A DNA stretch of 24,000 nucleotides from Oscillospiraceae bacterium LCP25S3_E10 (GTDB lineage Bacteria; Bacillota; Clostridia; Oscillospirales; Acutalibacteraceae): assembly GCA_052117325.1 (NCBI GenBank), contig JBQKJJ010000002.1, one strand, 5' to 3'. Positions within the stretch are counted from its first letter, which is position 1; each line of letters begins with the position of its first letter. Of the stretch, positions 5,404 through 24,000 are shown in pieces. A program made the position numbers and the translations under genes. Under the pieces are notes generated by a model. It was not told where the DNA came from. It did not search any database and saw only the letters and a list, made by a program, of their open reading frames with translations.

Positions 5404-7080
5404 TTATTGGTTTACATCAAGAATTGCGCCTGTGTTGCCGGATGTAACCATTGCGGCATATCTAGCCAAATAGCCTGTTTTAATTCTTGGCTCTTTCGGC
5501 TGCCACTCTTTTCTTCTTTCTGCAAGCTCTTCGTCTGAAAGCTTAACATTAATCTTGTTTGCCATAATATCTATAGAGATTATATCGCCGTCCTTAATTA
5601 ATGCAATAGGACCGCCTACTGCTGCTTCAGGAGATACATGACCGATAGCTGCACCTCTGGTAGCGCCCGAAAAACGACCGTCTGTAATAAGTGCAACTGT
5701 GCTTCCTAAGCCTCTGCCCATAATAGCCGATGTAGGGTTAAGCATTTCTCTCATACCAGGGCCGCCCTTTGGTCCCTCGTAGCGAATTACAACAACATCG
5801 CCATCGTGGATTTGGTCGCCCATTATAGCTTTCATAGCGTCCTCTTCACAGTCAAATACTCTGGCAGGACCTTCGTGTACAAGCATTTCAGGAGCAACCG
5901 CACTTCTTTTAACAACACATGAATCAGGAGCAATATTACCTCTTAGAACTGCTATACCACCTGTTTTGCTGTAAGGGTTATCAACAGGTCTAATAACCTC
6001 CGGGTTCTTATTTTTGCAAAGAGCAATATTTTCGCCTACAGTTTTACCTGTAACTGTCATACAATCTGTATGTAAAAGTCCAAGCTTATTAACCTCGTTC
6101 ATAACAGCGTAAACGCCGCCTGCCTCATTAAGGTCTTCCATATGGTGAGGGCCTGCAGGAGCAAGATGACATAGGTTAGGTACTTTATCACTAATTTTAT
6201 TTGCAATATCTAGGTTAATTTCTATGCCTGCCTCGTGTGCAATAGCCGGTAGGTGCAGCATACTGTTTGTACTGCAGCCAAGAGCCATATCAATAGTAAG
6301 AGCATTTTCAAATGCCTCTTGAGTCATAATGTCACGAGGCTTAATGTCCCTCTTTAGCAGCTCCATAATCTGCATACCTGCCTTTTTAGCAAGGCGGATT
6401 CTCTCTGAATATACAGCCGGAATAGTACCGTTGCCACGCAAGCCCATACCAAGAACTTCTGTAAGGCAGTTCATAGAGTTTGCTGTGTACATACCTGAAC
6501 ATGAACCGCATGTTGGACAGGTTTTTTCTTCATATTCTGTCAGCTCTTCCTCTGAAATCTTGCCCGCTGCATAAGCACCAACAGCTTCAGAAGCAGCCGA
6601 AAAACTAACCTTGCAGCCGTTTACCGTACCTGCAAGCATAGGACCGCCGCTTACGAAAATTGTAGGAATATTCATTCTGGCAGCTGCCATTAACAAACCC
6701 GGAACATTCTTGTCGCAGTTTGGAATCATAACCAATGCGTCAAAGCCGTGTGCCATTGTCATACACTCTGTAGAATCAGCTATTAGGTCACGGGTTACAA
6801 GTGAATATTTCATTCCCTGGTGTCCCATAGCGATTCCGTCACATACTGCTATAGCCGGGAAAACAGCCGGAGTACCGCCTGCCATAGCTACACCAAGCTT
6901 TACAGCCTCTGTAATCTTGTCAATATTCATATGTCCCGGAACAATTTCATTAAATGAACTTACAATACCTATAAGGGGTCTTTTCTGCTCCTCTGCTGTA
7001 AATCCAAGAGCATTAAAAAGTGTTCTGTGTGGTGCATTTTGAGCGCCGTTTTTTATTGCGTCACTTCTCATCTCATACAA
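5404..7080 (-). CDS. ilvD: Dihydroxy-acid dehydratase
   Basis: 558 aa with RSDAIKNG..., [17 protein letters not shown] and TDGRFSG motifs of IlvD. ATG 7071 (MRSD...) is an alternative start. Confidence 0.95.
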
Positions 7081-7165
7081 TCCTTTCTTACAATCTTATT
7101 TCTAATATATTTTGCAAGGAATATATTTTAAAAAGAATATACTCTACCCTGTGGGATTTATTATC

Positions 7166-7194
7166 ATTATAAAATTAATAATTGTTACTGTCAA
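7166..7194 (-). promoter_or_regulatory. Sigma-A promoter of ilvD
   Basis: On the minus strand: TTGACA (7194-7189), a 17-nt spacer, then TATAAT (7171-7166). Both hexamers match consensus. The leader is only about 80 nt, too short for a T-box. Confidence 0.65.
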
Positions 7195-7241
7195 GAAGTA
7201 TTGCCGCATAAGTAAAGAATGTTTTAATAGCTTTTGCAATT

Positions 7242-7273
7242 AAAAAAGCAAGCAACGCTACAGTGCTGCTTGC
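7242..7273 (-). terminator. Terminator of the cohesin/dockerin gene cluster
   Basis: Stem GCAAGCA (7248-7254) / TGCTTGC (7267-7273) plus inner pairs. On the minus strand it is followed by TTTTTT (complement of 7242-7247). Confidence 0.6.
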
Positions 7274-7313
7274 CCTTGTGAAAACTCACATTTTTATTTT
7301 TGTTAAGTTTTTA

Positions 7314-8009
7314 TTACTCTAATATTAATGCCCTTAGCATCGTAACATCGTTAGCATCAAACTTACCGTCTTTATTCAGGTCATTTTTTGCTATTTCCTC
7401 TGCGGTCATATCATCTGCATGAACATATTTACCGGCTATTATTAAATAGTCAGAAACTGTTACAGCATTGTCACCATCTAAGTCGCCAACCAAAGTTTCC
7501 GGCTGAGCTGGTGCTTCTGTTTCAGGGGTAGAAACAACTTCTAATTTCTCTGTAAATTTGTCTGTAATTTGCTCAAAATTATTATTAACTATATCTGTAA
7601 TACTGTAGTTAAATGGCAGTTCATCTGCCGCAGCGTCCTCGTTAAGTACAAACTCTACAGCAGCAACAAGCTGTCCGCCGCTTATCATATAATCCATTCT
7701 TCCCAATGCGGCACAAATTCTCAAATTGTCCGATTCGTCCTTAACTTGAGTAATAGCATCATTTAGGAAGCTGTATGTTGTTGACTGATTGAAAGACAGC
7801 TTATCGGAATTATATTTAACTATAAAGTCAATACCGCAAAAATCGCTGTCAACATCTGAAGGCAAATATAGTGAGTATCTAAATACTGTGCCTGCCTTAT
7901 ATTGGCCTTTTTCAGGATTGACCTGGGCTGATGCAGTCACTGCAAACAAAGATGTTACTATAATCAGCACACCCACAAATGACGCTAATAACTTTTTAAC
8001 TTGATTCAT
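7314..8009 (-). CDS. Secreted single-cohesin-like module protein with C-terminal dockerin (adaptor-scaffoldin-like)
   Basis: 231 aa. The signal peptide is MNQVKKLLASFVGVLIIVTSLFAVTASA. A cohesin-like beta module spans about aa 29-160 (GTVFRYSLYLP...GIDFIVKYNSDKLSF...VAAVEFVL). An acidic Pro-rich linker is TPETEAPAQPE. The dockerin (aa 174-231, nt 7317-7490) has two Ca-binding loops, DLDGDNAVTVSD and DLNKDGKFDAND. Confidence 0.75.
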   Translation of the reverse strand: MNQVKKLLASFVGVLIIVTSLFAVTASAQVNPEKGQYKAGTVFRYSLYLPSDVDSDFCGIDFIVKYNSDKLSFNQSTTYSFLNDAITQVKDESDNLRICAALGRMDYMISGGQLVAAVEFVLNEDAAADELPFNYSITDIVNNNFEQITDKFTEKLEVVSTPETEAPAQPETLVGDLDGDNAVTVSDYLIIAGKYVHADDMTAEEIAKNDLNKDGKFDANDVTMLRALILE

Positions 8010-8100: not shown

Positions 8101-8817
8101 TTAATCACTGACGCTGTCTGCCTGCTTTTGTTTTTTCTTTTTATATACAATAGCAACTACCACAAGTACCACTGCTGCTGCGGCAACACCTACAATAGCC
8201 CATATCATAAACGGGTTACTGTTGTTTGTGTTGTTGTCATTTACAACGGATGCGGTATCTGCAGTTGCAGAGTCCTGCTTTATTGCGTCCATACCGTCTA
8301 CAGGATTTACGATTTCACCGTCATATTTGCCCTTTTCAATTTGTTCATTTATTGAATAGTCAGATGAGGTCATATCCTTTAAATCTGTATCGTACATTTC
8401 GGACACAGCTATTTTTATTTCATTATCTGAAGCCTTTTCTTTTACCGTAAAAGATGCTGAAATAAGTAGCTTTTCTTCTTTAAAATCAAAACCCTTTGCG
8501 GCGTCAATGGCTGCAAATTTTATTGACCCTGTTTTTTCGGAATTGGCAATGGTTTGTCCCAGATTTGGTACATTAATACTGCTTTTATCCAATTCCAAAG
8601 AATTGCTGTCGTACTTAATCTCAGCATTTATGCCGGAACAGTTTTTGTCCGCCTTTAGTTTCACAGTAAATGTAACTGTATCTCCCTCGTTAAATTCCTT
8701 TGAATTAACGGTAACAGTATTTGCGGCAAAGGCCGTAATCACACTCATAGCAATAATTACGGTAGCTGCTGCAAAGCAAGTTATTATTCGACTGGCTATA
8801 TGGCTGTTTTTCCTCAC
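8101..8817 (-). CDS. Membrane-anchored single-cohesin-like protein (candidate anchoring scaffoldin)
   Basis: 238 aa, with GTG start 8817 placed 9 nt after GGAGG (8832-8828). It has a signal peptide/N-terminal hydrophobic segment and a cohesin-like module at about aa 33-145 (GDTVTFTVKLKADKNCSGINAEIKYDSNSLEL...ISASFTVKEKA). A Ser/Asn/Asp-rich spacer follows. The C-terminal TM helix is FMIWAIVGVAAAAVVLVVVAIVY (nt 8143-8211), followed by a KKKKQKQ tail. I saw no LPXTG motif. Confidence 0.7.
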   Translation of the reverse strand: MRKNSHIASRIITCFAAATVIIAMSVITAFAANTVTVNSKEFNEGDTVTFTVKLKADKNCSGINAEIKYDSNSLELDKSSINVPNLGQTIANSEKTGSIKFAAIDAAKGFDFKEEKLLISASFTVKEKASDNEIKIAVSEMYDTDLKDMTSSDYSINEQIEKGKYDGEIVNPVDGMDAIKQDSATADTASVVNDNNTNNSNPFMIWAIVGVAAAAVVLVVVAIVYKKKKQKQADSVSD

Positions 8818-9166: not shown

Positions 9167-12100
9167 TTAAGATATCAGTTTCTTCAAAGCTGAAATATCG
9201 CTCATATTAAATCTGCCGTCACCGTTTATATCAGCCGCCTCAAGCTGCTCGGCTGTAATGTGGTCTATCTTTAGATACCAAGAACAAATTACTGTGTAGT
9301 CACTCATTGTTACACTGCCGTCATTGTCCAGGTCGCCAAGAAGTCTCTTAGGCTCTACACGAACATAGCTTTCAAAAGCTGAACCGTTTTTCGGCTGGTA
9401 CTCATCGTCAACATATGTTAAGCTGCTGCCGTTAATATCGCAAAGCTCTCTCATTCTGTATGAAAGTGTAGTTGTACAATCCTCTTTAGCAATAAACTGC
9501 AAGCAAATTAGCTTTTGAACTGTTCCTGTGTTGTAGTTTAAGCCCTTTGACAAATCATCAATGCTCTTAACATTGTTATATACTGCCTCACCAGGAATCT
9601 GTGTTGAGCTTAGGAATATATCACCAGGGAATACGCTTGGTTTTACAGCGCTGTCACCCAGTGCGTAATCTATCTGTGCAGTACCTGATGCAAAGCCGTT
9701 ATTCTCGGCAAATTCTTTGTTGATTTCAAGCTTGTCGTTATCATAGAACATATCTACTGTCCAACCTGAAATATCAATACCTGTTGAAGGTAATACCAAT
9801 TCTACCCAATAATCAACCTTGTCACCCTTCTTAACAGTTACCTCTGTTGCAGCTGTAGTTGGTCTCTGTGTAGGCTGCTCTGTAGGAGTTGTAGGTGTAG
9901 TTGGTGTTGTAGGTGTTGTAGGTGTAGTTGGTGTAGTTGGAGTTGTTGGAGTTGTAGGTGTAGTTGGTGTTGTTGGTGTTGTAGGCTGTTCGCTGGAAAC
10001 GATCTTATAATCCTGACCGAACTTAGCACCGTCTGCAGCCTGGTATGTACCGTCAATATATGCATTGTCTAGGTCTACATCGCACATTTCTCTTAGTCTG
10101 TAGCTTAGGTTAATTGTGCCTGTTTCCTTAGCTGTGTACTGTACGCATATTAGCTTCTGAGTAGAACCTGTGTTTAGTCCCAATGAAGAATGTACAGCGC
10201 TTACAAATGAAACTCTTGCCTTTGTATCCTTAATGTCAAGCATACTTCCGCCAGGAAGTGCTGCAGGTGTTGTAGTGTTGCCTATTGCATAATCAATAGC
10301 TGCTGTACCGCAAGCATAACCTGCTGTTGCAAATGAAGAATCATATTCAAGCTTATTGCTGTCATATAGGAAGTCAACAACCCAGCCTGATACATCTTTA
10401 CCGCTTTTTGGAATATTTACTTCTGCCCAGTAAGCAACCTTGTCGCCCTTCTTAACAGAAATTTCCTTAGCTGCTGTTGTTGGAGCTGTCAGCCATTCGT
10501 CTGTTGATGGATCTGTTGGTGTTGTTGGGTCTGTTGGTGTTTCGCCGCTTACAACAGCACTGTTGCTGCTTGAAACCTTTGTTGTTACAGGTTGTCCTGT
10601 CTGTGAGTTATACTGGTTTTCAGCGTCAAGACCAATAGCCTCTTTCATCTTATAAGAAATAGTAGCTGTTCCTGCTTTCTTAGCTACAAATGAAACAGTA
10701 ATTAGGTTCTTCTGTGTTGTAAAGTCGTAAGTTGTAGTAGGTGTACCGATACCAACTGTAGAAATCAGTCCGTCTTCCTCGGTTCTCTGCTGTGTCATTC
10801 CTGAAATGTTAGGGAATGATACTGAATTTACTGTAAGTAGTGATGAATCATAGTTAATATCTGTTCTAAAGCCGTAAAGCTTTTCAGCAAACTTAAAGTC
10901 AACCTTGTAAGTTACTGTGTCGCCGGCTTTAAATGTAACCTTTGTTGAACCTGTTGTTGCATCCTCTGTGCCACTCTGAACAACAGCGTTCTGTGAAATT
11001 GACAAACCGCTTACAGGCTTAGCATTTACTACAAGGTCGTTTTCGTTATCGTCAATCATTTCGTTGATAGTGTAGCTAATCTTGTATGTGCCTGCCTTCT
11101 TAGCTGTAAAGCGTACTGTCTGAATTGTAGTATTGCTTTCTGCTGTATAGCAGTCATTTGCAGGTGCAAGTGCAATAGCACTGATCTTGCCTGCAGTTGT
11201 AGTATTAACTATCTCTGTACCCTTGTTTGAACCAAGAGTATCTACACCGTCTTTACTGTATGTAGTATCAAGTGCAAAAGCAGAAGCGTCGTAATTTGTT
11301 GTTATGTTATAAGAACCAATCTTCTTTGATGTTTTTGCATCTACAGTAAATGTAACTGTATCTCCTGCCTTTACAGTAACAGATTTTTCACCGGTTACCT
11401 GTGTTCCAGGAGTGGTTGGTGTAGTAGGTGTCTGTGTTGGAGTAGTTGGAGTAGTTGGAGTAGTTGGAGTGGTTGGTGTAGTAGGTGTCTGTGTTGGTGT
11501 TGTTGGTACTTGTGTTGGATCTGTTGGGTGGATGTTTGTACCTACATAAGCAAACGGAGCTGTAACATTGTCCTCGTCGCTCTTCTCTTTACTGTTCTTC
11601 TCATGGGAGGCACCTGCATCACTTTGGTCTGCATTGTCATTCATTGACAAATCATAAGGCAGACAGTCCATACCGGACTTACCAAATGTGGCAATGTTCA
11701 TAATGCCGACACCTTTAGATTCAATGTCGCTCTTTGTAACGCCAAGAATTGAAAGCGGAATAGACATCTCATAGTGGAAGTCCATTCCATCGCTGTTGTG
11801 GCCCTTTGTATTAAAGTCAACCCAAGCAGCACTTTGGTTGCACATATCGCCTATGACTCTGTTGTGACTTTGACCATAACCGCCGTCAATGCCGTAAACA
11901 TTTTTGCTGACTATACCATCACCATATTTGAAGTTAATACCTGCTGTTGATGAATTGTAAACTTCCTTTGGATTAAGGCCTGTGCTGTCACCTGAGTATA
12001 CAAAAGGTCCGTTTGAACCGTTTGTAGAAATTGCAATAAGTCTGTTAAAGCTTCTGTCAATAGTAATACCTGAATCCCAAATAGTACCTGATGTTTGCAG

Positions 12101-12628
12101 CTTACCGCTGTTTCCTATTGCGTCAGACTTACCTGTATCAATCGCAATAAAGAAAGGTAAATTCTGATTTTGGTACAAATGACCCTGTGTTAACGGATAG
12201 TCAGCAGCAGGAGCAACAACATCCTGAACATTTGTCATTTCCCACATTAGGTACAGGTTATTGTCGTCCCAAGCACCGTACATAGCGTACATATCAATAG
12301 GTACCTCGTGCATTGAATCATCACGATATACTCTTGGGTCATCGTTTGCTGTACCCTGAGCAATAAGCATTGAGCTATCCCAGTCAGAAATGTCTCCATC
12401 TATAGTTATGGTCTTATTTTTACCAAAACCTGTGCCATTTGTGGAGTAGTAGCTGGCTAATGAAGATGAGCTTGCATTTGCACTGCTCAAAGCTGTTGGA
12501 CCGACCTTTGCTGAGTCGGCACTTTGCTGGTTTGTGCTTGTAGCTGCTGTTGCAGGAACAACGCACATTGACGCAACCATTAAAGCCGCAAGAACTGAGC
12601 TTACAACTTTACGCTGGTGTTTTGCCAT
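9167..12628 (-). CDS. Large secreted scaffoldin-like protein: signal peptide, ~300-aa N-terminal domain, four cohesin-like modules separated by Thr/Pro linkers, C-terminal dockerin
   Basis: 1153 aa, with ATG 12628 placed 8 nt after GGAGG. The signal peptide is MAKHQRKVVSSVLAALMVASMCVVPATA. Module motifs are VTVKAGDTVTFTVDA...NYDASAFAL, VTFKAGDTVTYKVDF...NYDSSLLTV, ISVKKGDKVAYWAEV...LYDSNKLEY and VTVKKGDKVDYWVEL...FYDNDKLEI. The dockerin is LLGDLDNDGSVTMSDY...ADINGDGRFNMSDISALKKLIS. Confidence 0.8.
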   Translation of the reverse strand: MAKHQRKVVSSVLAALMVASMCVVPATAATSTNQQSADSAKVGPTALSSANASSSSLASYYSTNGTGFGKNKTITIDGDISDWDSSMLIAQGTANDDPRVYRDDSMHEVPIDMYAMYGAWDDNNLYLMWEMTNVQDVVAPAADYPLTQGHLYQNQNLPFFIAIDTGKSDAIGNSGKLQTSGTIWDSGITIDRSFNRLIAISTNGSNGPFVYSGDSTGLNPKEVYNSSTAGINFKYGDGIVSKNVYGIDGGYGQSHNRVIGDMCNQSAAWVDFNTKGHNSDGMDFHYEMSIPLSILGVTKSDIESKGVGIMNIATFGKSGMDCLPYDLSMNDNADQSDAGASHEKNSKEKSDEDNVTAPFAYVGTNIHPTDPTQVPTTPTQTPTTPTTPTTPTTPTTPTQTPTTPTTPGTQVTGEKSVTVKAGDTVTFTVDAKTSKKIGSYNITTNYDASAFALDTTYSKDGVDTLGSNKGTEIVNTTTAGKISAIALAPANDCYTAESNTTIQTVRFTAKKAGTYKISYTINEMIDDNENDLVVNAKPVSGLSISQNAVVQSGTEDATTGSTKVTFKAGDTVTYKVDFKFAEKLYGFRTDINYDSSLLTVNSVSFPNISGMTQQRTEEDGLISTVGIGTPTTTYDFTTQKNLITVSFVAKKAGTATISYKMKEAIGLDAENQYNSQTGQPVTTKVSSSNSAVVSGETPTDPTTPTDPSTDEWLTAPTTAAKEISVKKGDKVAYWAEVNIPKSGKDVSGWVVDFLYDSNKLEYDSSFATAGYACGTAAIDYAIGNTTTPAALPGGSMLDIKDTKARVSFVSAVHSSLGLNTGSTQKLICVQYTAKETGTINLSYRLREMCDVDLDNAYIDGTYQAADGAKFGQDYKIVSSEQPTTPTTPTTPTTPTTPTTPTTPTTPTTPTTPTTPTEQPTQRPTTAATEVTVKKGDKVDYWVELVLPSTGIDISGWTVDMFYDNDKLEINKEFAENNGFASGTAQIDYALGDSAVKPSVFPGDIFLSSTQIPGEAVYNNVKSIDDLSKGLNYNTGTVQKLICLQFIAKEDCTTTLSYRMRELCDINGSSLTYVDDEYQPKNGSAFESYVRVEPKRLLGDLDNDGSVTMSDYTVICSWYLKIDHITAEQLEAADINGDGRFNMSDISALKKLIS
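9170..9343 (-). other. Dockerin module of the scaffoldin
   Basis: There are two EF-hand-like loops, DLDNDGSVTMSD and DINGDGRFNMSD. The LLGDLDND codons were verified at 9343-9320. Confidence 0.75.
9350..9859 (-). other. Cohesin-like module 4 (about aa 924-1093)
   Basis: See module 3. Confidence 0.55.
9881..9985 (-). repeat. Imperfect 9-bp tandem repeat (about 11.7 copies) encoding (Pro-Thr-Thr)11-Pro-Thr linker
   Basis: Codon-by-codon reading of 9881-9985 gives 11 x PTT followed by PT, with synonymous variation between copies (ACA/ACT, CCA/CCT). Confidence 0.9.
9995..10483 (-). other. Cohesin-like module 3 (about aa 716-878)
   Basis: Paralogous to module 4. Compare KKGDKVAYWAEV with KKGDKVDYWVEL, SGWVVDFLYD with SGWTVDMFYD, and QKLICVQYTAKE...LSYRLREMCD with QKLICLQFIAKE...LSYRMRELCD. 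Confidence 0.55.
10550..10963 (-). other. Cohesin-like module 2 (about aa 556-693)
   Basis: See module 1. It shares the motifs KAGDTVT and NYD-S. Confidence 0.55.
10994..11398 (-). other. Cohesin-like module 1 (about aa 411-545)
   Basis: Boundaries come from the flanking linker and a Gly/Ser/Thr spacer. It is paralogous to module 2 (FTAKKAGTYKISY vs FVAKKAGTATISY). Confidence 0.55.
11411..11497 (-). repeat. Exact 30-bp direct repeat (11411-11440 and 11468-11497, 57-bp period) inside the first Thr/Pro linker
   Basis: AGTGGTTGGTGTAGTAGGTGTCTGTGTTGG occurs twice on the plus strand. It encodes the PTQTPTTPTT segments of the linker spanning 11405-11527. Confidence 0.85.
11543..12457 (-). other. 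Scaffoldin N-terminal domain (about aa 58-362), function unknown; possibly carbohydrate-binding (CBM9/DOMON-like motif)
   Basis: The TITIDGDISDWD ... YGAWDDNNLYLMWEMTN ... FFIAIDTG pattern resembles the D-G-x-x-x-x-W / W-D-x-x-x-L-Y signature of CBM9-like sugar-binding modules. This is motif-level recognition only. Confidence 0.3.
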
Positions 12629-14391: not shown

Positions 14392-14964
14392 TTACTCCCG
14401 TGTACCGGCTTTATTTTTGTACTTTCCCAATATCAGTAAGGCAGAAAGCACAAACCACGCATATGAAATGCAAAAAGCCATACTATATTTGGAAGTTAAA
14501 ACAAGCAGCAACATTATACCGAGTTCAATTAATAAAATAATAGCGCTGCGCCTCCTGTATTTTATAACTTCATCTTTGTTAATATATTTATAAACACTAT
14601 CTACAGGTGATAAAACAAATATAGCAGGCAGCCCCACTACCGCACACAGGATAATAACCCAGGTAAAGTCGGTAAAAAAGGTCAGCAATAAATTTAATGT
14701 TGTAATAATACAACAAGATATTGCCAGACAAGAAATAAAATTCTTTGCATGGAAGCCACCGGCATACTGCCTCAGCACTGCAAATGTCCCAAAAAATACT
14801 ATTGTCTCCAGCACATTTCCAAATAATATGCCGATTATGAGGAATATGCAAAATGAAAAAACCATTTCCTCAATTAGTTGTAAGCCAAAGCAATATACCT
14901 TCCGCTCGTTTTCCTTTATAATGTTGGCTTCCACCATATACGCAACAATTTTATCTCTTAACAT
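14392..14964 (-). CDS. agrB: AgrB-family accessory gene regulator B (membrane endopeptidase that processes AgrD)
   Basis: Multi-TM protein with LRQYAGGFHAKNFISCLAIS. The His and Cys are 7 residues apart, the same spacing as the catalytic His/Cys pair of S. aureus AgrB. The N-terminus MLRDKIVAYMVEANIIKENERKVYCFGLQ matches the clostridial AgrB pattern. I therefore prefer ATG 14964 over the ORF-track start 14979. Confidence 0.85.
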   Translation of the reverse strand: MLRDKIVAYMVEANIIKENERKVYCFGLQLIEEMVFSFCIFLIIGILFGNVLETIVFFGTFAVLRQYAGGFHAKNFISCLAISCCIITTLNLLLTFFTDFTWVIILCAVVGLPAIFVLSPVDSVYKYINKDEVIKYRRRSAIILLIELGIMLLLVLTSKYSMAFCISYAWFVLSALLILGKYKNKAGTRE

Positions 14965-15112
14965 TCTTGAACATCTCAATTTCCTTTGGTGCTACAGGCT
15001 GATGAGCCAAAATACTTGATGTTGTATTCGCACTGTTGATGATTATCTTTTCTACTGCACTCTTTGTGATTTTGCATAGGTTTGTTTTTAGTGATGCCTT
15101 TAGTGATTTCAT
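14951..15112 (-). CDS. agrD: AgrD-like cyclic autoinducing peptide precursor (53 aa); not in the ORF track
   Basis: My own translation starts at ATG 15112-15110, after GGGAGGTGAGAGAT. It reads MKSLKASLKTNLCKITKSAVEKIIINSANTTSSILAHQPVAPKEIEMFKNVKR with stop TAA at 14953-14951. It has an amphipathic N-terminus and a short core. The charged tail, beginning HQPxxPKE, resembles the AgrB-recognition tail recalled from clostridial AgrD peptides. It overlaps the agrB start by 14 nt. Confidence 0.7.
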   Translation of the reverse strand: MKSLKASLKTNLCKITKSAVEKIIINSANTTSSILAHQPVAPKEIEMFKNVKR

Positions 15113-17256: not shown

Positions 17257-18660
17257 TTAAGCGTTCATAGCCTCCTGAGGCTGTATTTTTGCTATGTTGT
17301 ACACCATTATAAGCAAGCAAACAAGCGGTATAACCAGTATAACCCCAAAAGCTATGGCAAGCAGTATTAAAAAGCTTGTCCATGGCATTACATACATTTG
17401 CTGTGCTGTGTCGCCCGACGAATTAATAAGATTTATTAACAGCACCGCTGCCGCCGACAACGCACCGCCTATTAACAATGCCTTTACAGCCAGTATTATA
17501 TTTTCAAGGTACATACTGTAGAAAATTTGACTTGTTTTGTAGCCTACGGCTTTCATAAGTCCTATTTCTGCCTTTCGCTCGGCTATGTTGTTATGCACGC
17601 TTAAAAATATATTTATAACCGTAAGCAGTAGTATAGCCGCCGTTAAAAATGTACCTACACCGCCAAAAATTCCCGTAAACGCAAGCATAGATTCGTCAAT
17701 ATAGCCTACCTGCACACCGGCATTAAAGCCCATACTTTTAAGCTGGCTCATTACCTCTGCAATGTTGTCTATGCTGTCGGCTGTAACAACATAATCTCTT
17801 GCGTATTCATCGTTTATATATTCATCAAGGTCGTCCTTCATACCGTTTTTCACGGCATTGTCAAGTGCCATTTTATCTATTTTTTCGGCTGTTGCTTTCG
17901 ATACTAATATACTATCACCGCCATCCAGTGAAGTTGCCTTGGAGTAGTAATAAATACCCACCACCTTTAGCTTGTAGGTTATTTTCGGCAAGCTGGTCCA
18001 TTCGCCCAGATAGCCCTTTTCGTATCCTCGTTTTTCACCCTTTGTAAATTGATGTATAAGATATTCCAAATCTACGGTAATTGTTTTGCCGATAAGACTT
18101 TCTGTGCTTATTTTTTCACGGGCTACGGTATTTCCTAAATCTTCGTCTATATCCTCATAAGTAAAGGTATGGGGTAATATACAGCTCATTTCAGGTGCTT
18201 TGTCCAGCCCGGTTCCTTTTATTACCTTGTTTATGTAATCACTGTCATAAAATTGTTCTCCTAAGCCTGCAGTAAGCTTATCTAAATTGGTTTCGCTTGT
18301 TGTGTTGCTTACATCCTTATTATTTTCATCTGTAATTTTAGTTATTGTTATCATTTCCGGCATAGTAGGAAGCGCCGCCCTTTCACAAGAAACAACATGC
18401 TCAAGCGAAAGAACATCACCCATTGTTTTATCTGTTATTCCCTTTCCTCCACTTGGATAGCAAGACTCCGGCATTATATACCCTTGCCTGCATATTTTCT
18501 TATTTTTATACTCATCACAGGTAGTATTTACAATGCTTAAAAAACCTACCAGCAGCGTAACTGCCACTACTGACAGTATCATCATAACCATTACAGTGTT
18601 TTTTCTTTTTGAGCCTTTCAGGTTTGCCCTAGCTAAAAATAAATTGTTGCTTATTCTCAT
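17257..18660 (-). CDS. FtsX/MacB-type ABC transporter permease (first permease)
   Basis: The ORF track gives 17257-18693. I prefer ATG 18660 (MRISNNLFLARANLKGSKRKN...), which lies about 9 nt after GGAGG. It has one N-terminal TM, an extracytoplasmic domain of about 300 aa and three C-terminal TMs. Confidence 0.85.
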   Translation of the reverse strand: MRISNNLFLARANLKGSKRKNTVMVMMILSVVAVTLLVGFLSIVNTTCDEYKNKKICRQGYIMPESCYPSGGKGITDKTMGDVLSLEHVVSCERAALPTMPEMITITKITDENNKDVSNTTSETNLDKLTAGLGEQFYDSDYINKVIKGTGLDKAPEMSCILPHTFTYEDIDEDLGNTVAREKISTESLIGKTITVDLEYLIHQFTKGEKRGYEKGYLGEWTSLPKITYKLKVVGIYYYSKATSLDGGDSILVSKATAEKIDKMALDNAVKNGMKDDLDEYINDEYARDYVVTADSIDNIAEVMSQLKSMGFNAGVQVGYIDESMLAFTGIFGGVGTFLTAAILLLTVINIFLSVHNNIAERKAEIGLMKAVGYKTSQIFYSMYLENIILAVKALLIGGALSAAAVLLINLINSSGDTAQQMYVMPWTSFLILLAIAFGVILVIPLVCLLIMVYNIAKIQPQEAMNA

Positions 18661-18862
18661 AAAAAAATACCTCCACTTCCTATAATACAACAACTGCGTT
18701 TATAGGAGTAAAGGTATTTTTAAAAAACAATCCGCCAAAAATCGGTTTGCAAATAAGTCTTAAAATTGTATAACCCAACAGCAATTTGTTCTGTTTACCG
18801 TAATTAGCCCTAAAAAACACAACTGTAATTCTAAAAAATTGTAAGCTTTTAACTTCGCTTGT

Positions 18863-18891
18863 ATTTTAACACCTTAAGGAGGCAAAGTCAA
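18863..18891 (-). promoter_or_regulatory. Sigma-A promoter of the ABC operon
   Basis: On the minus strand: TTGACT (18891-18886), a 17-nt spacer, then TAAAAT (18868-18863). This implies a leader of about 195 nt. Confidence 0.5.
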
Positions 18892-18979
18892 CAATGCTAA
18901 TAAAATATTTTTCACCTGCTATAGCTGTAAAAAAATACGCCATCTCATATTTGCAATATAATTAAACCACACTTGCCTA

Positions 18980-19008
18980 TTGACAATATACACATTGTGC
19001 AATATAAT
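18980..19008 (+). promoter_or_regulatory. Sigma-A promoter of the aro operon leader
   Basis: TTGACA (18980-18985), a 17-nt spacer, then TATAAT (19003-19008). Both hexamers match consensus. Confidence 0.65.
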
Positions 19009-19071
19009 AAGGCTGTAAGATTTCATAGGGGACATCACGGGCATTTTGCCAACGATGTTAAGAGGTTTATT

Positions 19072-19161
19072 ATGGCACAGCTTAAATCAAAGAATTTTAC
19101 ATTTTTTGGTTACTTCAGCAGTTATTCTGTTGGAGCTTATTTTGCTTGTGTAAAATCTTAA
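19072..19161 (+). CDS. Candidate Phe/Tyr-rich leader peptide (29 aa) of the aro operon
   Basis: AAGAGG (19060-19065) lies 6 nt before the ATG. The peptide is MAQLKSKNFTFFGYFSSYSVGAYFACVKS, with 5 Phe and 3 Tyr. It is the C-terminal part of the ORF-track entry 18973-19161. Confidence 0.55.
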   Translation: MAQLKSKNFTFFGYFSSYSVGAYFACVKS

Positions 19162-19208
19162 CAGTAAGTTACCTTATGAAGCCTAATTGATTTTATATTT
19201 TTGGTTTT

Positions 19209-19245
19209 AAACGGAGCTTACTGCAAGCTCCGTTATTTTTATTTT
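19209..19245 (+). terminator. Intrinsic terminator (attenuator) immediately upstream of aroF
   Basis: Stem AACGGAGCTT (19210-19219) / AAGCTCCGTT (19225-19234) with loop ACTGC, followed by ATTTTTATTTT. It ends 13 nt before ATG 19259. Confidence 0.7.
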
Positions 19246-19258
19246 CGGAGGTTTTAAT

Positions 19259-20278
19259 ATGATTATTGTATTACAAAAGGGAACAACACCACAGCAGGCC
19301 GAGGAATTTGGCAAACAGCTGGAAAAAAGCTACAATATAAAGGTAAATCTTTGGGAGGGCGTGCAAAGCTCTGTACTGGGCTTGATAGGCGACACCACTT
19401 CTATAGATATTGACGCTATTAATGCACAGTCGCTTGTAGCTAATGTTCAGCGTGTGCAGGAGCCTTATAAAAAGGCAAACCGCAAGTTCCACCCGGACAA
19501 CACTGTTATCACCCTTGACAACGGCACAAAAATAGGCGACGGCAACTTGGCTATTATGGCTGGCCCTTGCTCTATAGAGGGTGAGGAGCAGATTTGCGGT
19601 ATAGCAGAGTCTGTAAAAAACAGCGGTGCTGTTATTTTGCGTGGCGGTGCGTTTAAGCCTCGTACCTCGCCGTACTCTTTCCAGGGCTTAAAGGGCGAGG
19701 GCCTAAAATATATGGAAGAGGCAAAGAAAAAAACAGGCCTGCCTATAGTTACTGAAATTATGGCGGCAGAGCATTTGCCTTTGTTTGAAAATGTAGATAT
19801 TATTCAGGTAGGTGCAAGAAATATGCAGAACTTTGAGCTTTTAAAGGAGCTGGGCAAAATTGACAAGCCTATACTTTTAAAGCGTGGTCTTGCCTGCACT
19901 ATCGAGGAGCTTTTGATGAGTGCCGAGTACATTATGGCAGGCGGCAACGAAAGGGTAATGTTCTGCGAAAGGGGTATTCGTACCTACGAAACCTACACCC
20001 GCAACACTCTTGACATTTCTGCTATACCGGCACTTAAAAAGCTTTCGCATTTGCCTGTTATTATTGACCCAAGCCACGCTGCCGGCAAAGCTTGGATGGT
20101 AGAGTCGCTGTCTATGGCGGCTGTTGCGGCAGGAGCTGACGGCTTGATTATTGAGGTACACAATGACCCTGCACACGCTTTGTCAGACGGTGCACAGTCA
20201 CTTACACCACAGCAGTTTGACGCTACAGCTAAAAAGCTGTTTGCACTAAAAAATGCTTTAAACAGCATTAACGAATAA
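19259..20278 (+). CDS. aroF: 3-deoxy-7-phosphoheptulonate (DAHP) synthase, type I-beta, with an N-terminal regulatory domain of about 70-80 aa
   Basis: 339 aa. The catalytic core carries AGPCSIE, RGGAFKPRTSPYSFQG and DPSH motifs of the KDOPS-like DAHPS subfamily. The N-terminal extension MIIVLQKGTTPQQAEEF...VQRV resembles the ferredoxin-like regulatory domain known from Thermotoga-type DAHPS. Confidence 0.9.
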   Translation: MIIVLQKGTTPQQAEEFGKQLEKSYNIKVNLWEGVQSSVLGLIGDTTSIDIDAINAQSLVANVQRVQEPYKKANRKFHPDNTVITLDNGTKIGDGNLAIMAGPCSIEGEEQICGIAESVKNSGAVILRGGAFKPRTSPYSFQGLKGEGLKYMEEAKKKTGLPIVTEIMAAEHLPLFENVDIIQVGARNMQNFELLKELGKIDKPILLKRGLACTIEELLMSAEYIMAGGNERVMFCERGIRTYETYTRNTLDISAIPALKKLSHLPVIIDPSHAAGKAWMVESLSMAAVAAGADGLIIEVHNDPAHALSDGAQSLTPQQFDATAKKLFALKNALNSINE

Positions 20279-20357
20279 AATTAAAACGCATATAAATGGC
20301 GTTTATTAAGGTAGTACAGGCTGTTGCCTGTTGCTTAGTTGATTAGGAAGTTTGTTT

Positions 20358-21188
20358 ATGAATATAGTTATATCCGGCCTAGGCATAATCGGCGGTTCAT
20401 ATGCTAAAGCCATAAAAAAATACACAGACCACACGGTTATAGGAATTAACCGCAGTGAAAGGCCGTTAAAATTGGCACTGGAGTGCGGTGCTATTGACAA
20501 AATAGGCACTAAAGAGGATTTAAAAACAGCCGATATGCTTATACTGGGTACTTTCCCTATGGCAGCTGTAGAATTTATAGAAAAAAACGGCGATTACATT
20601 AACAAAAACTGCATTGTTACCGACACCTGCGGAATAAAGGGTAAAATATGCCCCGAAATGGTTAGGCTGTCCGAAAAATACGGCTTTACCTTTGTAGGCA
20701 CCCACCCTATGGCCGGCAAGGAAACAAACGGCTTTGAGTCAGCCGACGCAGACCTTTTTGTGAACGCCTCTTGCATAATAGTACCCTGCAAGGCCGACAA
20801 CACCGCAGTAACCTTTGTAAGCGACTTTGTGCGTGCCATAGGCTTTACGCAAACCCCTGTGGTAACCCCACAGGTACACGACAGAATGATAGCCTTTACC
20901 TCGCAGGTGCCTCATGTTATGGCCTGTGCCTATGTATTAAGCCCTGTATGCAAAAATCACAAGGGCTTTTCGGCAGGCAGCTACCGTGATGTATCGAGAG
21001 TGGCTAAGATAAACGCAAAGCTGTGGACAGAGCTGTTTTTGGAAAACAAAGAGCCTCTTACAGCGGAGCTTGACACACTTATTGACAATTTAACACAAAT
21101 ACGCAACAGCATTGCAAATAACGACGACCAAGGGCTGTGTAAGCAGCTGCAAATGAGCAGACAGGTTAAGGAGGAGCTAAAGGAATGA
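20358..21188 (+). CDS. tyrA: Prephenate dehydrogenase
   Basis: ATG 20358 lies 7 nt after AGGAAG; the ORF-track start 20352 is a TTG. The N-terminal dinucleotide fold is MNIVISGLGIIGGS, and a GTHPMAG motif is present. Confidence 0.85.
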   Translation: MNIVISGLGIIGGSYAKAIKKYTDHTVIGINRSERPLKLALECGAIDKIGTKEDLKTADMLILGTFPMAAVEFIEKNGDYINKNCIVTDTCGIKGKICPEMVRLSEKYGFTFVGTHPMAGKETNGFESADADLFVNASCIIVPCKADNTAVTFVSDFVRAIGFTQTPVVTPQVHDRMIAFTSQVPHVMACAYVLSPVCKNHKGFSAGSYRDVSRVAKINAKLWTELFLENKEPLTAELDTLIDNLTQIRNSIANNDDQGLCKQLQMSRQVKEELKE

Positions 21189-22237
21189 AAACACTGCATA
21201 TTGCAACGGGAAAGCCCTACGATATTATAATAGAGCGTGGTATTATTGACCAATGTGGTACATATGTACGGGAGGTATCAAGGGCAAAAAAGGCGATGAT
21301 TATTTCCGACAGCAATGTTTTTCCTATTTACGGCGTCAGAGCAGAGACCTCTTTAAAACAGGCCGGATTTGAAACCTCGCAGTTTGTCTTTACTGCCGGT
21401 GAAGAAAGCAAAAGACTTGAAACCATTGCACAAATGTACACTGCACTTATAGAAAACAGCTTTACAAGAAGTGATATTATTGTAGCCCTAGGCGGCGGAG
21501 TTGTAGGCGATATGAGCGGGTTTGCCGCCGCTACATATTTGCGGGGTATAGACTTTGTTCAAATACCTACCTCACTGCTGGCACAGGTGGATTCATCTGT
21601 AGGCGGCAAAACAGGCGTAGATATTCCACAGGGTAAAAATTTAGTAGGTGCTTTTTGGCAGCCAAACACAGTGCTTATAGACCCGGACACCTTAAACACC
21701 CTTACACCGCACTTTTTTGCAGACGGTATGGGCGAGGTTGTTAAGTACGGCTGTATAAAGAGCGAAAAGCTTTTTGAAACACTTGAAAAGGAAAACGCAC
21801 CCGACATTATAGACGACATTATTTATCAATGTGTAGAAATAAAGCGTGATGTAGTGCAAAGGGACGAGCGTGACCACGGTGAACGGGCATTGCTTAACTT
21901 TGGCCATACATTAGGTCACGCTATCGAAAAGGAGCATAGCTTTAAGGGTGTATCACACGGTGAGGCTGTAGCCATTGGTATGGTTATGGTAACAAGGGCA
22001 AGTGAAAAGGCCGGCATTACCCCTGCAGGTACAGCCGACAGAATTGCACAGCTTTGCAAGAAGTACAACCTGCCAACCTGTGACACAACACCTATAGAGA
22101 GAATTGTGAAAAGCTCTTTCTCCGACAAAAAGAGCAGCGGCGACAGCATTGGCTTAGTTGTGCTGGATAAAATAGGTGAAAGCAAAGTCTACCCTGTTAA
22201 AAAGACCGATATGCTTGGCTTTGTAACAGGTAAATGA
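21185..22237 (+). CDS. aroB: 3-dehydroquinate synthase
   Basis: 350 aa with GGGVVGDMSGFAAATYLRG, SSVGGKTG and NFGHTLGHAIE motifs. There is an ATGA overlap with tyrA. Confidence 0.95.
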   Translation: MKTLHIATGKPYDIIIERGIIDQCGTYVREVSRAKKAMIISDSNVFPIYGVRAETSLKQAGFETSQFVFTAGEESKRLETIAQMYTALIENSFTRSDIIVALGGGVVGDMSGFAAATYLRGIDFVQIPTSLLAQVDSSVGGKTGVDIPQGKNLVGAFWQPNTVLIDPDTLNTLTPHFFADGMGEVVKYGCIKSEKLFETLEKENAPDIIDDIIYQCVEIKRDVVQRDERDHGERALLNFGHTLGHAIEKEHSFKGVSHGEAVAIGMVMVTRASEKAGITPAGTADRIAQLCKKYNLPTCDTTPIERIVKSSFSDKKSSGDSIGLVVLDKIGESKVYPVKKTDMLGFVTGK

Positions 22238-22269: not shown

Positions 22270-23532
22270 ATGAGTAAGGTTAGAGTATTTCCCTCTGTTT
22301 TTAACGGAGAGGTAACACTTCCGCCCTCTAAAAGCGATGTTCACCGTGCCATACTTTGTGCGTCGCTTGCAAGGGGCAAAAGTGTAATATCCCCTGTAGA
22401 TATGTCCCAAGATATTTTGGCAACCATTGACTGTGCCAAAGCCTTGGGAGCAGATATTACCGTTGAGGGCAACACCGTATATATAGACGGTACAAATTTG
22501 TTTGGCAGCAAAACTGCAGAGCTTAACTGTAGGGAATCCGGCTCTACCCTGCGTTTTTTCATTCCTGTAGCAGCTGTAGGCGGCGTGGCGGCTACCTTTA
22601 CAGGCAAGGGCAGACTGCCCCAGCGTCCTATAGGCATTTACCTTGACTGCCTGCCGAAATTCGGTGTAAAATGTAATACAGAGGGCGGTTTACCACTTGA
22701 TATAAGCGGCAAGCTACAGCCGGGCAACTTTGAAGTGCCGGGCAATGTAAGCTCGCAGTTTATTACAGGGCTTTTGCTTGCCCTGCCCCTTACAGGCAAG
22801 GACTGTACTATAACCTTAACCTCGCCGTTGCAGTCTGTTGGATATATTAATATGACAATACGCACTATGGGCGTGTTTGGTGTAAAGGTAGAGGCAACAG
22901 AAAATGGCTACTTTATTAAGGGCGGTCAAAGCTACAAGCCATGCCGCTACACCTGTGAGGGCGACTGGTCCCAGGCGGCTTTCTTTATGGCAGCCGGTGC
23001 ACTGGGCGGACAACTTACACTAAAGGGCTTGCGTACCGACTCAATACAAGGGGATATGCAGTGTCTGGAAATTTTTAAAGAGTTTGGTGCTGATGTAACA
23101 GTAACTCCAAATGGTATTACCGTTACAGGCGGAGATTTAAAGGGCATTAGCATAGACGCCACACAAATTCCCGACTTAGTGCCTATTTTGGCAGTTACTG
23201 CCGCATTTGCAAAGGGCAGTACAAATATTTATGGGGCGGAAAGACTTAGAATAAAAGAAAGTGACCGCCTAAACGCAATATCTACCTGTTTGAATAAGGT
23301 AGGTGCAAAGATAACGGAAAAGCCTGACGGGTTAATTATTGAGGGCGTTAAAAATGCCGCAGGCGGAAGTGTAGAGGGCTATAACGACCACAGAATTGTT
23401 ATGTCTATGGCAATATGTGCTGAAAAATCCACAGCACCAATAGAAATAAGCGACAAAGAAAGTATAAATAAGTCTTACCCAAGCTTTTTTGAGGATTATA
23501 AAAAAGTAAAGGGCAAGGTTGAGGAAATATAA
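22270..23532 (+). CDS. aroA: 3-phosphoshikimate 1-carboxyvinyltransferase (EPSP synthase)
   Basis: 420 aa with PPSKSDVHRAILCASLA, RESGSTLRF, LRIKESDR and NDHRIVMS motifs. Confidence 0.95.
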   Translation: MSKVRVFPSVFNGEVTLPPSKSDVHRAILCASLARGKSVISPVDMSQDILATIDCAKALGADITVEGNTVYIDGTNLFGSKTAELNCRESGSTLRFFIPVAAVGGVAATFTGKGRLPQRPIGIYLDCLPKFGVKCNTEGGLPLDISGKLQPGNFEVPGNVSSQFITGLLLALPLTGKDCTITLTSPLQSVGYINMTIRTMGVFGVKVEATENGYFIKGGQSYKPCRYTCEGDWSQAAFFMAAGALGGQLTLKGLRTDSIQGDMQCLEIFKEFGADVTVTPNGITVTGGDLKGISIDATQIPDLVPILAVTAAFAKGSTNIYGAERLRIKESDRLNAISTCLNKVGAKITEKPDGLIIEGVKNAAGGSVEGYNDHRIVMSMAICAEKSTAPIEISDKESINKSYPSFFEDYKKVKGKVEEI

Positions 23533-23563: not shown

Positions 23564-24000
23564 ATGTCATCTTGTTGGGGCAACAAAGTAAAAATATCAA
23601 TATTCGGCGAAAGCCACGGTAAGGGTATAGGCGTGGTTGTAGACAATTTGCCTGCCGGTGAAAAAATAGATATGGAGCAGGTGCTTATGCATATGGGCAG
23701 GCGTGCTCCCGGTAAGGACAAAACCGCTACACCAAGGCTTGAAAAGGATTTGCCGCAAATACTAAGCGGTATGCTTAACGACACCACCACAGGTACGCCT
23801 ATGTGTGCTGTTATAGAAAACACCAACACCCGTTCAGGGGACTATGGCAATTTATTAACAGCTCCAAGGCCGGGGCACGGCGACTATCCGGGTTTTATAC
23901 GCTACAACGGGTTTAACGACATTCGTGGCGGCGGTCATTTCTCCGGCAGACTTACTGCTCCTATTGTATTTGCAGGTTCTGTATGCCGACAAATTTTAGA
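23564..24000 (+). CDS. aroC: Chorismate synthase, N-terminal part (continues beyond the window)
   Basis: My own translation starts at ATG 23564, after GGAGG (23551-23555). It reads MSSCWGNKVKISIFGESHGKGIGVVVDNLPAG...RRAPGK...RPGHGDY...RGGGHFSGR and stays open to the window end. Confidence 0.9.
   Translation, partial: MSSCWGNKVKISIFGESHGKGIGVVVDNLPAGEKIDMEQVLMHMGRRAPGKDKTATPRLEKDLPQILSGMLNDTTTGTPMCAVIENTNTRSGDYGNLLTAPRPGHGDYPGFIRYNGFNDIRGGGHFSGRLTAPIVFAGSVCRQIL

Follow-up and report, generated by a model that had tools for sequence, protein, structure and literature searches.

A predicted Phe/Tyr-responsive leader-peptide attenuator upstream of the aroF operon of an Oscillospiraceae bacterium

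How do Clostridia match the entry into aromatic amino acid synthesis to the supply of the pathway products? This question is raised by a stretch of 24,000 nucleotides from Oscillospiraceae bacterium LCP25S3_E10 (contig JBQKJJ010000002.1 of GenBank assembly GCA_052117325.1; the whole stretch is called the window below), in which an aroF-tyrA-aroB-aroA-aroC operon is preceded by a leader with a short, Phe- and Tyr-rich open reading frame (ORF) and an intrinsic terminator. A first-pass annotation, made from the letters of the window, had read this leader as a Phe/Tyr-sensing attenuator. The element is real and widely conserved in Clostridia, and the comparative evidence, including the match to a covariance model of the family, supports that reading: judged from sequence and folding models, a ribosome-mediated leader-peptide transcription attenuator probably makes expression of the five genes dependent on how much charged tRNA-Phe and tRNA-Tyr is available. 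The locus would then be a clean and well-anchored case of a leader peptide that controls, by attenuation, the first step into the aromatic amino acid pathway, with Phe and Tyr proposed to be sensed together, in a lineage of the Clostridia that is uncultured and of gut or rumen type.

Architecture and predicted folding of the aroF leader

Transcription of the leader is expected to start at about position 19015, downstream of a sigma-70-type promoter (Table 1) that scores 12 out of 12 against the consensus and is the sole match of this quality in the region. The ORF that follows has an ATG start codon behind a Shine-Dalgarno (SD) sequence, and 8 of its 29 codons specify Phe (residues 9, 11, 12, 15 and 24; UUU four times and UUC once) or Tyr (residues 14, 18 and 23; UAC, UAU and UAU). 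It is proposed that these codons are the sites at which the ribosome stalls when Phe-tRNA or Tyr-tRNA is scarce. The terminator, AACGGAGCTT-ACTGC-AAGCTCCGTT at 19210-19234 of the DNA followed by ATTTTTATTTT at 19235-19245, has a hairpin energy of -14.8 kcal/mol and is placed between the promoter and the gene that it serves, with 13 nucleotides from the end of the U-tract to the ATG of aroF. It is not the terminator of a preceding gene, because the upstream neighbour (17257-18693, minus strand) is divergent from the aroF operon. The promoter, the AAGAGG ribosome-binding site, the 29-codon ORF with five Phe and three Tyr in codons 9-24, the 10-bp hairpin with its U-tract and the order of the genes downstream had all been described in the first-pass annotation and were found exactly where it had placed them; in the operon, the first four genes are identified by NCBIfam, and aroC is a tentative call from its translation and motifs.

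The choice between termination and read-through would depend on the 12 nucleotides that directly follow the leader stop codon (antiterminator strand or 'segment 2'), for which the annotation had proposed a pairing with positions 19213-19223 in the 5' arm and loop of the terminator. We recovered this pairing base for base: it consists of seven Watson-Crick pairs, one G.U and one A-U pair, a bulged A19171 and two C-G pairs, and has an RNAduplex energy of -14.1 kcal/mol, which gives z = -2.9 when the upstream segment is shuffled. As both conformers use 19213-19223, they are mutually exclusive. A comparison of their energies, which the annotation had suggested, showed them to be nearly equal: in constrained folds of 19157-19246 the energies are -20.0 kcal/mol with the terminator and -18.6 kcal/mol with the antiterminator, a difference of only 1.4 kcal/mol. 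A small hairpin between segments 2 and 3 is present in both constrained folds and fits both conformers, and the leader as a whole is more structured than its shuffles (z = -4.8).

From these elements the following series of events can be proposed. After initiation at the consensus promoter, a ribosome would translate the 29-codon leader. With Phe-tRNA and Tyr-tRNA plentiful, it would arrive at the UAA and its footprint would lie over 19162-19173, leaving the 5' arm of the terminator free to form the hairpin, and RNA polymerase would stop in the U-tract. With either tRNA scarce, the ribosome would stall in codons 9-24 and 19162-19173 would be exposed; this segment would pair with 19213-19223 once these are transcribed, the terminator would not form, and transcription would read through into aroF. 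The decision would be kinetic and taken before the 3' arm of the terminator emerges, as in classical attenuators. When the transcript was folded to position 19224, just before the 3' arm, the antiterminator formed in the absence of a ribosome as well as with a ribosome mask on F9, F12, F15, Y18, Y23 or F24, and was lost solely with the mask on the stop codon.

Table 1. Features of the aroF leader and operon; all are on the plus strand, and functional labels of leader elements are predictions
Feature	Position	Strand	Details
Sigma-70-type promoter	18980..19008	+	TTGACA 18980-18985, 17-nt spacer, TATAAT 19003-19008
5' untranslated region (UTR) hairpin	19031..19059	+	ACAUC..GGCA UUU UGCC..GAUGU, before the ribosome-binding site; in minimum free energy (MFE) folds
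SD of leader ORF	19060..19065	+	AAGAGG, 6 nt before ATG at 19072
Leader peptide ORF	19072..19161	+	29 codons + UAA (19159-19161); encodes MAQLKSKNFTFFGYFSSYSVGAYFACVKS
Putative regulatory codon stretch	19096..19143	+	codons 9-24; 5 Phe, 3 Tyr
ORF-internal hairpin	19113..19144	+	CUUCAGCAG-UUAUU-CUGUUGGAG (19113-19135), then CUUAUUUUG; terminator-like; in MFE folds
Antiterminator strand (segment 2)	19162..19173	+	CAGUAAGUUACC; begins right after UAA
Small hairpin between segments 2 and 3	19177..19209	+	19177-19183 with 19203-19209; in both constrained folds
Intrinsic terminator	19210..19245	+	10-bp stem AACGGAGCUU/AAGCUCCGUU (segments 3 and 4), loop ACUGC, U-tract AUUUUUAUUUU
SD of aroF	19247..19251	+	GGAGG
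aroF, DAHP synthase	19259-20278	+	N-terminal regulatory extension; NCBIfam
tyrA, prephenate dehydrogenase	20352-21188	+	NCBIfam
aroB	21185-22237	+	NCBIfam
aroA	22270-23532	+	NCBIfam
aroC, chorismate-synthase-like ORF	from ~23562, past window end at 24000	+	translation

Conservation of the leader across aroF loci

AroF relatives were gathered from 80 species genomes and 80 metagenome contigs. Upstream of aroF, most loci have a short ORF dense in Phe and Tyr codons and then an intrinsic terminator; carriers include Oscillibacter valericigenes, Clostridium mediterraneense, C. thailandense and Acetobacterium carbinolicum, MSTFTFAAEYRYFSFTYYFGKAYFGLAENECV and MLSIALFTFAYYYYYYFTKSNSDLCCKQF are examples of the related peptides, and SD-like sequences precede most of the ORFs. 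An ATG-ORF with at least five F/Y in a 12-residue window, no more than 300 nucleotides upstream of aroF, is present in 71% of 80 related loci, in comparison to 1.2% of the reverse complements and 8.4% of dinucleotide shuffles, and the metagenome loci show the same pattern. The peptides range from 16 to 60 amino acids and their sequences vary widely; the density of F and Y alone is constant. Family-wide, the densest 12-residue window contains 31.5% F, 25.2% Y and only 1.7% W, and at least two F and at least two Y are found in this window in 86 of 105 loci, which argues that both amino acids are used.

A sequence-only nhmmer profile of 103 leaders returned the window leader as its top match, at E = 0.04 and with high bias; this is too weak to stand alone, and a covariance model took the place of the profile. 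The model, R1, was built from 29 leaders, including aroF leaders of Clostridium sensu stricto and excluding both the window and its nearest relative. R1 matches the window full-length at 19057-19244 with 60.8 bits (E = 6.6e-12), while the next matches in the window have 15.1 bits (reverse strand of the terminator palindrome) and 14.4 bits (within a coding region). The one in a coding region, at 8349-8525 inside a minus-strand ORF with a cohesin domain, was rejected as a chance match to AT-rich sequence. Across 81 sources R1 has 40 matches at E < 0.01, and each of them lies immediately before aroF, on the coding strand; cultivable relatives with a match include O. valericigenes and Ruminococcus sp. 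zg-924, and the resulting family joins the window leader with the aroF leaders of C. mediterraneense, C. thailandense and an Acetobacterium-like contig. Within the 29-leader alignment, double changes are seen at all nine pairs of the terminator stem, in which 85-92% of cells are paired.

The position of the antiterminator is conserved too. For 105 non-redundant loci, the segment after the F/Y cluster was compared with the 5' arm and loop of the terminator: complementarity has a mean z of -2.2 (t = -14.7), with z < -2 in 55% of loci. The antiterminator strand starts at a median distance of 19 nucleotides (interquartile range 16-28) from the last codon of the cluster, which places it just past the footprint of a stalled ribosome. 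Relative to the stop codon, its start lies no further than +12 in 97% of loci, and therefore a terminating ribosome would cover the strand or would just have unwound it; both geometric conditions hold in 84%. The comparison with orthologous leaders that the annotation had suggested has thus been carried out, and ORF, Phe/Tyr codons, terminator and antiterminator position recur across many Clostridia.

The nearest relative, a metagenome-assembled genome (MAG) of the Acutalibacteraceae (L001, 93% AroF identity), locates the window within the Clostridia; it has a conserved leader ORF encoding MAQQKSKNYTFFGYFGSYSVEVYFACKT and also has a perfect TTGACA-17-TATAAT promoter upstream of it, at a distance different from that of the window. 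Within the antiterminator strand, CAG of the window is GAG in L001, and this is matched by a change of CUG to CUC in the terminator loop. A scan of metagenomes for relatives closer than L001 returned none (best AroF identity 78%); this one compensatory change is therefore the basis for fine-scale covariation of the antiterminator in the window.

Several results weigh against a ribosome-mediated attenuator of the proposed wiring. Firstly, kinship among the 105 loci inflates the p-values of the complementarity statistics. Secondly, the homologous antiterminator of L001 (the helix between segments 2 and 3) is weak, with -8.9 kcal/mol and z of about 0, and the strongest alternative in L001 is a different 1:2 helix that uses another segment of the ORF (-14.4 kcal/mol, z = -2.5). 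The exact pairing of the window is therefore not strictly conserved; judged from these sequences, the fine wiring appears to drift fast between the two genomes while the logic stays. Thirdly, the alignment does not establish a conserved anti-antiterminator or P1 helix: the P1 candidate GCACG:CGUGC shows some covariation in a subgroup, but is paired in only 51% of cells over the 29 sequences. Another way of forming P1, by pairing of the box CGAUUUACAGG with sequence downstream, was rejected (mean z = -0.5 over 21 loci). Finally, once the full stem is present, the terminator is the MFE structure in all modelled ribosome states of the window. The terminator/antiterminator logic of the first-pass annotation is supported, with the refinement that the switch must be kinetic and set before the 3' arm is transcribed, and regulation therefore rests on kinetics that lie outside the folding model. 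The same is seen family-wide: when full-length leaders were folded with ribosome masks, the terminator was the MFE structure in 93-98% of loci at any ribosome position. As this model failed to discriminate, folds that end before the 3' arm and duplex z-scores were used. Across loci, the fold-state model separates the two states only modestly: the 5' arm is sequestered in 89% with the ribosome stalled, versus 60% with the ribosome at the stop codon.

Known attenuators and alternative readings

Attenuators of aromatic amino acid genes in Firmicutes are not new. Starting from Clostridium novyi, Stav et al. (2019, BMC Microbiol 19:66, PMC6429828, Additional files 1 and 3) described two motifs as 'aromatic amino acid attenuators'. 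For one of them, uORF-13, 336 examples are listed, from Bacillales, Clostridiales, Thermoanaerobacterales, Negativicutes and metagenomes; aroF is the downstream gene in about half of these and tyrA is the next commonest neighbour. In this motif a terminator follows a short ORF whose F-Y-F falls in the P1 loop, an arrangement that the authors, independently of the analysis here, read as a trp-like transcription attenuator. The other, uORF-12 (1258 examples), has an F-Y-rich peptide and is mostly found before transporters and in some cases before shikimate genes. The window leader resembles uORF-13 in its Clostridia host, in the Phe/Tyr-rich short ORF right before an intrinsic terminator stem and in the gene order aroF then tyrA. 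It differs in the peptide: the uORF-13 consensus is F-Y-F in the P1 loop, whereas the window has F-F-G-Y-F and A-Y-F rather than a strict F-Y-F (many of its relatives have YFYF). It is likely that the window leader is a member of uORF-13 or a close sister, as the textual definition fits apart from the strict F-Y-F and P1, and as the leader shares the R1 family with leaders of Clostridium sensu stricto.

The presentation of the leader as unusual in the first-pass annotation, which had called this type of control classically proteobacterial, is consequently out of date: uORF-12 and uORF-13 are spread across Firmicutes (PMC6429828), and an upstream ORF of Acholeplasma aroF has been described as well (PMC8632094). 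With Firmicutes aroF attenuators proposed in 2019, a claim of novelty is not supported, and the leader serves as a good illustration but is no discovery, being a well-documented member of a known attenuator class that is so far a proposal in the literature. Our understanding of the mechanism is unchanged: the principle dates back to the trp and phe operons, and it had already been proposed for aroF of Firmicutes. What is gained is support for a class known solely from the supplement of one paper: more than 100 loci, a geometry consistent with the ribosome footprint and a working covariance model. In a literature search, none of the names uORF-12, uORF-13 and 'aromatic amino acid attenuator' turned up in the main text of a paper; they occur only in the 2019 supplement.

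In Proteobacteria, the pheL-pheA and pheM-pheST leaders (Rfam Phe_leader, PMC3082878) follow the same logic, with a Phe-rich leader ORF, mutually exclusive hairpins and a decision made by the position of the ribosome. The window leader has no similarity to them in sequence or structure (no Rfam match at E <= 10). It would sense interspersed Phe and Tyr rather than a run of Phe, and would control the common shikimate pathway and the Tyr branch rather than pheA, in a Gram-positive lineage of the Clostridia rather than in Proteobacteria. A further difference to the classical model is that its antiterminator strand lies just past the stop codon and that the state with no ribosome is predicted to be antiterminated. 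In the classical attenuation model, the state with no translation is superattenuated.

The uORFC-13-1 motif of Acholeplasma, for which attenuation was proposed (Brewer et al. 2021, PMC8632094), is found exclusively before aroF and shares with the window a promoter, a ribosome-binding site, an upstream ORF that contains Phe codons and, next to it, an intrinsic terminator; by its description it differs in the host (Mollicutes), in a distinct consensus and in a U-run that codes for at least one Phe in place of a mixed F/Y cluster. According to the Stav et al. supplement (PMC6429828), the aroR leader upstream of aroF in Corynebacterium glutamicum is a ribosome-mediated attenuator with an F-Y-F leader peptide that controls DAHP synthase; the host is an actinobacterium, and Stav et al. 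describe its peptide and RNA structure as distinct. In relatives of C. difficile, His-leader attenuators have been reported (Ashniev et al. 2022, PMC9413887), and a premature termination event was observed in the 5' UTR of C. difficile aroF itself (Fuchs et al. 2021, PMC8237595), the one experimental hint in favour of attenuation before aroF.

A search of the whole window with Rfam 15 at gathering thresholds identified two tRNAs only. In the region 18690-19300, a search at E <= 10 found no T-box, Phe_leader or other leader family in the transcribed leader; four low-scoring matches belong to unrelated families and all are upstream of the transcribed leader. The absence of a T-box, which the annotation had also noted, is meaningful because the same search detects T-boxes in the related loci L070, L021, L028 and L064. 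In two of these a T-box (RF00230) is directly upstream of aroF (L070:2168-2419 with aroF at 2501; L021:442-699 with aroF at 775). A T-box has the same position before aroF, senses tRNA charging and chooses between terminator and antiterminator, but it binds uncharged tRNA directly and requires no translation. Its presence in place of the leader in L070 and L021 is what would be expected if the leader is a sensor of tRNA charging. Further T-boxes are found nearby in L070 (1716-1979, minus strand), L028 (4759-5003) and L064 (1727-1929, minus strand). One genome, CAJJZS01, has two aroF paralogues, L017 with an F/Y leader and L028 without. Ten related loci that carry the leader gave no leader-relevant Rfam family for the motif at gathering thresholds, three leader peptides gave no Pfam or NCBIfam family, and the uORF-13-type motif is not in Rfam 15, with no match on the window or on Clostridium leaders. 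None of Rfam, Pfam and NCBIfam contains the class, and such leaders are therefore unannotated in genomes and MAGs.

The strongest alternative retains the attenuator and changes its sensor: the balance would be tipped towards one of the conformers by a trans-acting RNA-binding protein, a tRNA or a small ligand, and the ORF would be incidental or only modulatory. Protein-mediated attenuation occurs in Firmicutes, with TRAP and PyrR as examples, and this precedent speaks for such a sensor, as do the modest discrimination of the ribosome-state folding model and nucleotide motifs that go beyond the choice of Phe and Tyr codons (CGA-UUU, and GGN UAU UUU GCN UGY .. AAA with its GG kept). We nevertheless consider it improbable: no Rfam family, T-boxes included, matches at E <= 10, an ORF with ATG and SD is kept across highly divergent sequences with a constant Phe and Tyr density that fits the pathway products, and the distances that separate the antiterminator from the codon cluster and from the stop codon agree with a ribosome footprint.

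Still less credible is that the ORF serves as a functional hydrophobic micropeptide, or that the element acts on the translation or stability of aroF, for example through pairing of the 3' arm with the SD, with the hairpin as a leaky terminator or stabiliser. A recurring C-terminal peptide motif, G-[YF]-F-[AC]-C-x-K, would suit a micropeptide, and in the full-length MFE structure CUCCG of the 3' arm does pair with CGGAG at the SD of aroF. However, the variation in peptide length and sequence at constant F/Y density, the lack of a Pfam or NCBIfam family for the peptides, the invariable place of the ORF between promoter and terminator directly upstream of aroF and the enrichment of antiterminator complementarity all argue for the attenuator instead. 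Chance, i.e. an AT-rich intergenic region with UUU/UAU-rich frames and a hairpin, is effectively refuted by the composition controls, the covariance-model match (no more than about 15 bits elsewhere in the 24 kb) and the terminator covariation, even though the low G+C content of the leader (0.30) and its U-rich sequence readily yield Phe codons and the nhmmer match was compositionally biased.

Further features of the leader and of the window

The ORF-internal hairpin is retained in L001 with UA and UG pairs swapped, and together with CUUAUUUUG it is possibly a pause hairpin for RNA polymerase. A candidate for 'segment 1' is GGAGCUUA (19132-19139), which copies sequence of the terminator 5' arm and can pair with 19165-19173; this 1:2 duplex is weak (-8.5 kcal/mol, z = -1.3). 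Another 1:2 candidate pairs AUUUUACA (19094-19101) with UGUAAAAU (19149-19156), at -8.5 kcal/mol and z = -2.2. The 5'-UTR hairpin is in a stretch that does not align with L001 and is probably outside the conserved core. In the MFE structure of 19015-19258, which is antiterminated, the pairing between the freed terminator 3' arm and the SD of aroF spans 19225-19252 and hints at a possible extra effect on translation. A 23-codon ORF at 18894-18965 (MLIKYFSPAIAVKKYAISYLQYN, five aromatic residues) was discarded: it is upstream of the -35 element, outside of the leader transcript, and is probably a chance product of AT-rich DNA.

Two short motifs recur within the leader ORFs. A near-invariant box, (G)CA CGA UUU ACA GG, marks the entry to the aromatic cluster in many of them (for example L002:2282-2457, L011:2222-2459 and L081:983-1160); the equivalent in the window is at 19090-19101 (AAG AAU UUU ACA). 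Arg-Phe pairs use CGA in 25 of 39 cases, whereas CGA makes up 37 of the 212 Arg codons in leader ORFs, and this bias suggests a constraint on the RNA or on decoding speed and not on the peptide. The second motif, GGN UAU UUU GCN UGY ... AAA, encodes the recurring C-terminal peptide motif near the end of the ORF and is common to Clostridium, Acetobacterium and Oscillospirales (for example L103:368-548, L155:188-401, L064:2155-2386 and L080:2150-2397); the window version, at 19132-19158, reads G-A-Y-F-A-C-V-K. Its GG is kept even where the codon has changed from Gly to Arg (L011), and its Cys codons open the antiterminator strand in several loci. The CGA-UUU pair and the exit block could form a second layer of control, by ribosome pausing, nascent-peptide arrest, or a P1 or pause element that synchronises RNA polymerase with the ribosome. 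This idea is a long shot; if true, the device would be more than a passive sensor of hungry codons.

Downstream of the leader, the ORF that runs past the end of the window is presumably chorismate synthase, a call made from its GESHG and RPGH motifs rather than from a profile search. Elsewhere in the window, three minus-strand ORFs (7314-8009, 8101-8817 and 9167-12628, the last of 1153 amino acids) have cohesin and/or dockerin type I domains; they encode scaffolding proteins of the cellulosome type, as would suit a Ruminococcus-like organism that degrades fibre. A protein of the AgrB family (accessory gene regulator B, peptide-pheromone processing) is encoded on the minus strand at 14392-14979 and may be adjoined by a small AgrD-like precursor ORF. 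The gene for dihydroxy-acid dehydratase, ilvD (5404-7080, minus strand), has an upstream intergenic region of 230 nucleotides (7081-7313), and the two tRNAs, tRNA-Leu(TAG) at 1302-1386 and tRNA-Met(CAT) at 1671-1747, are both on the plus strand.

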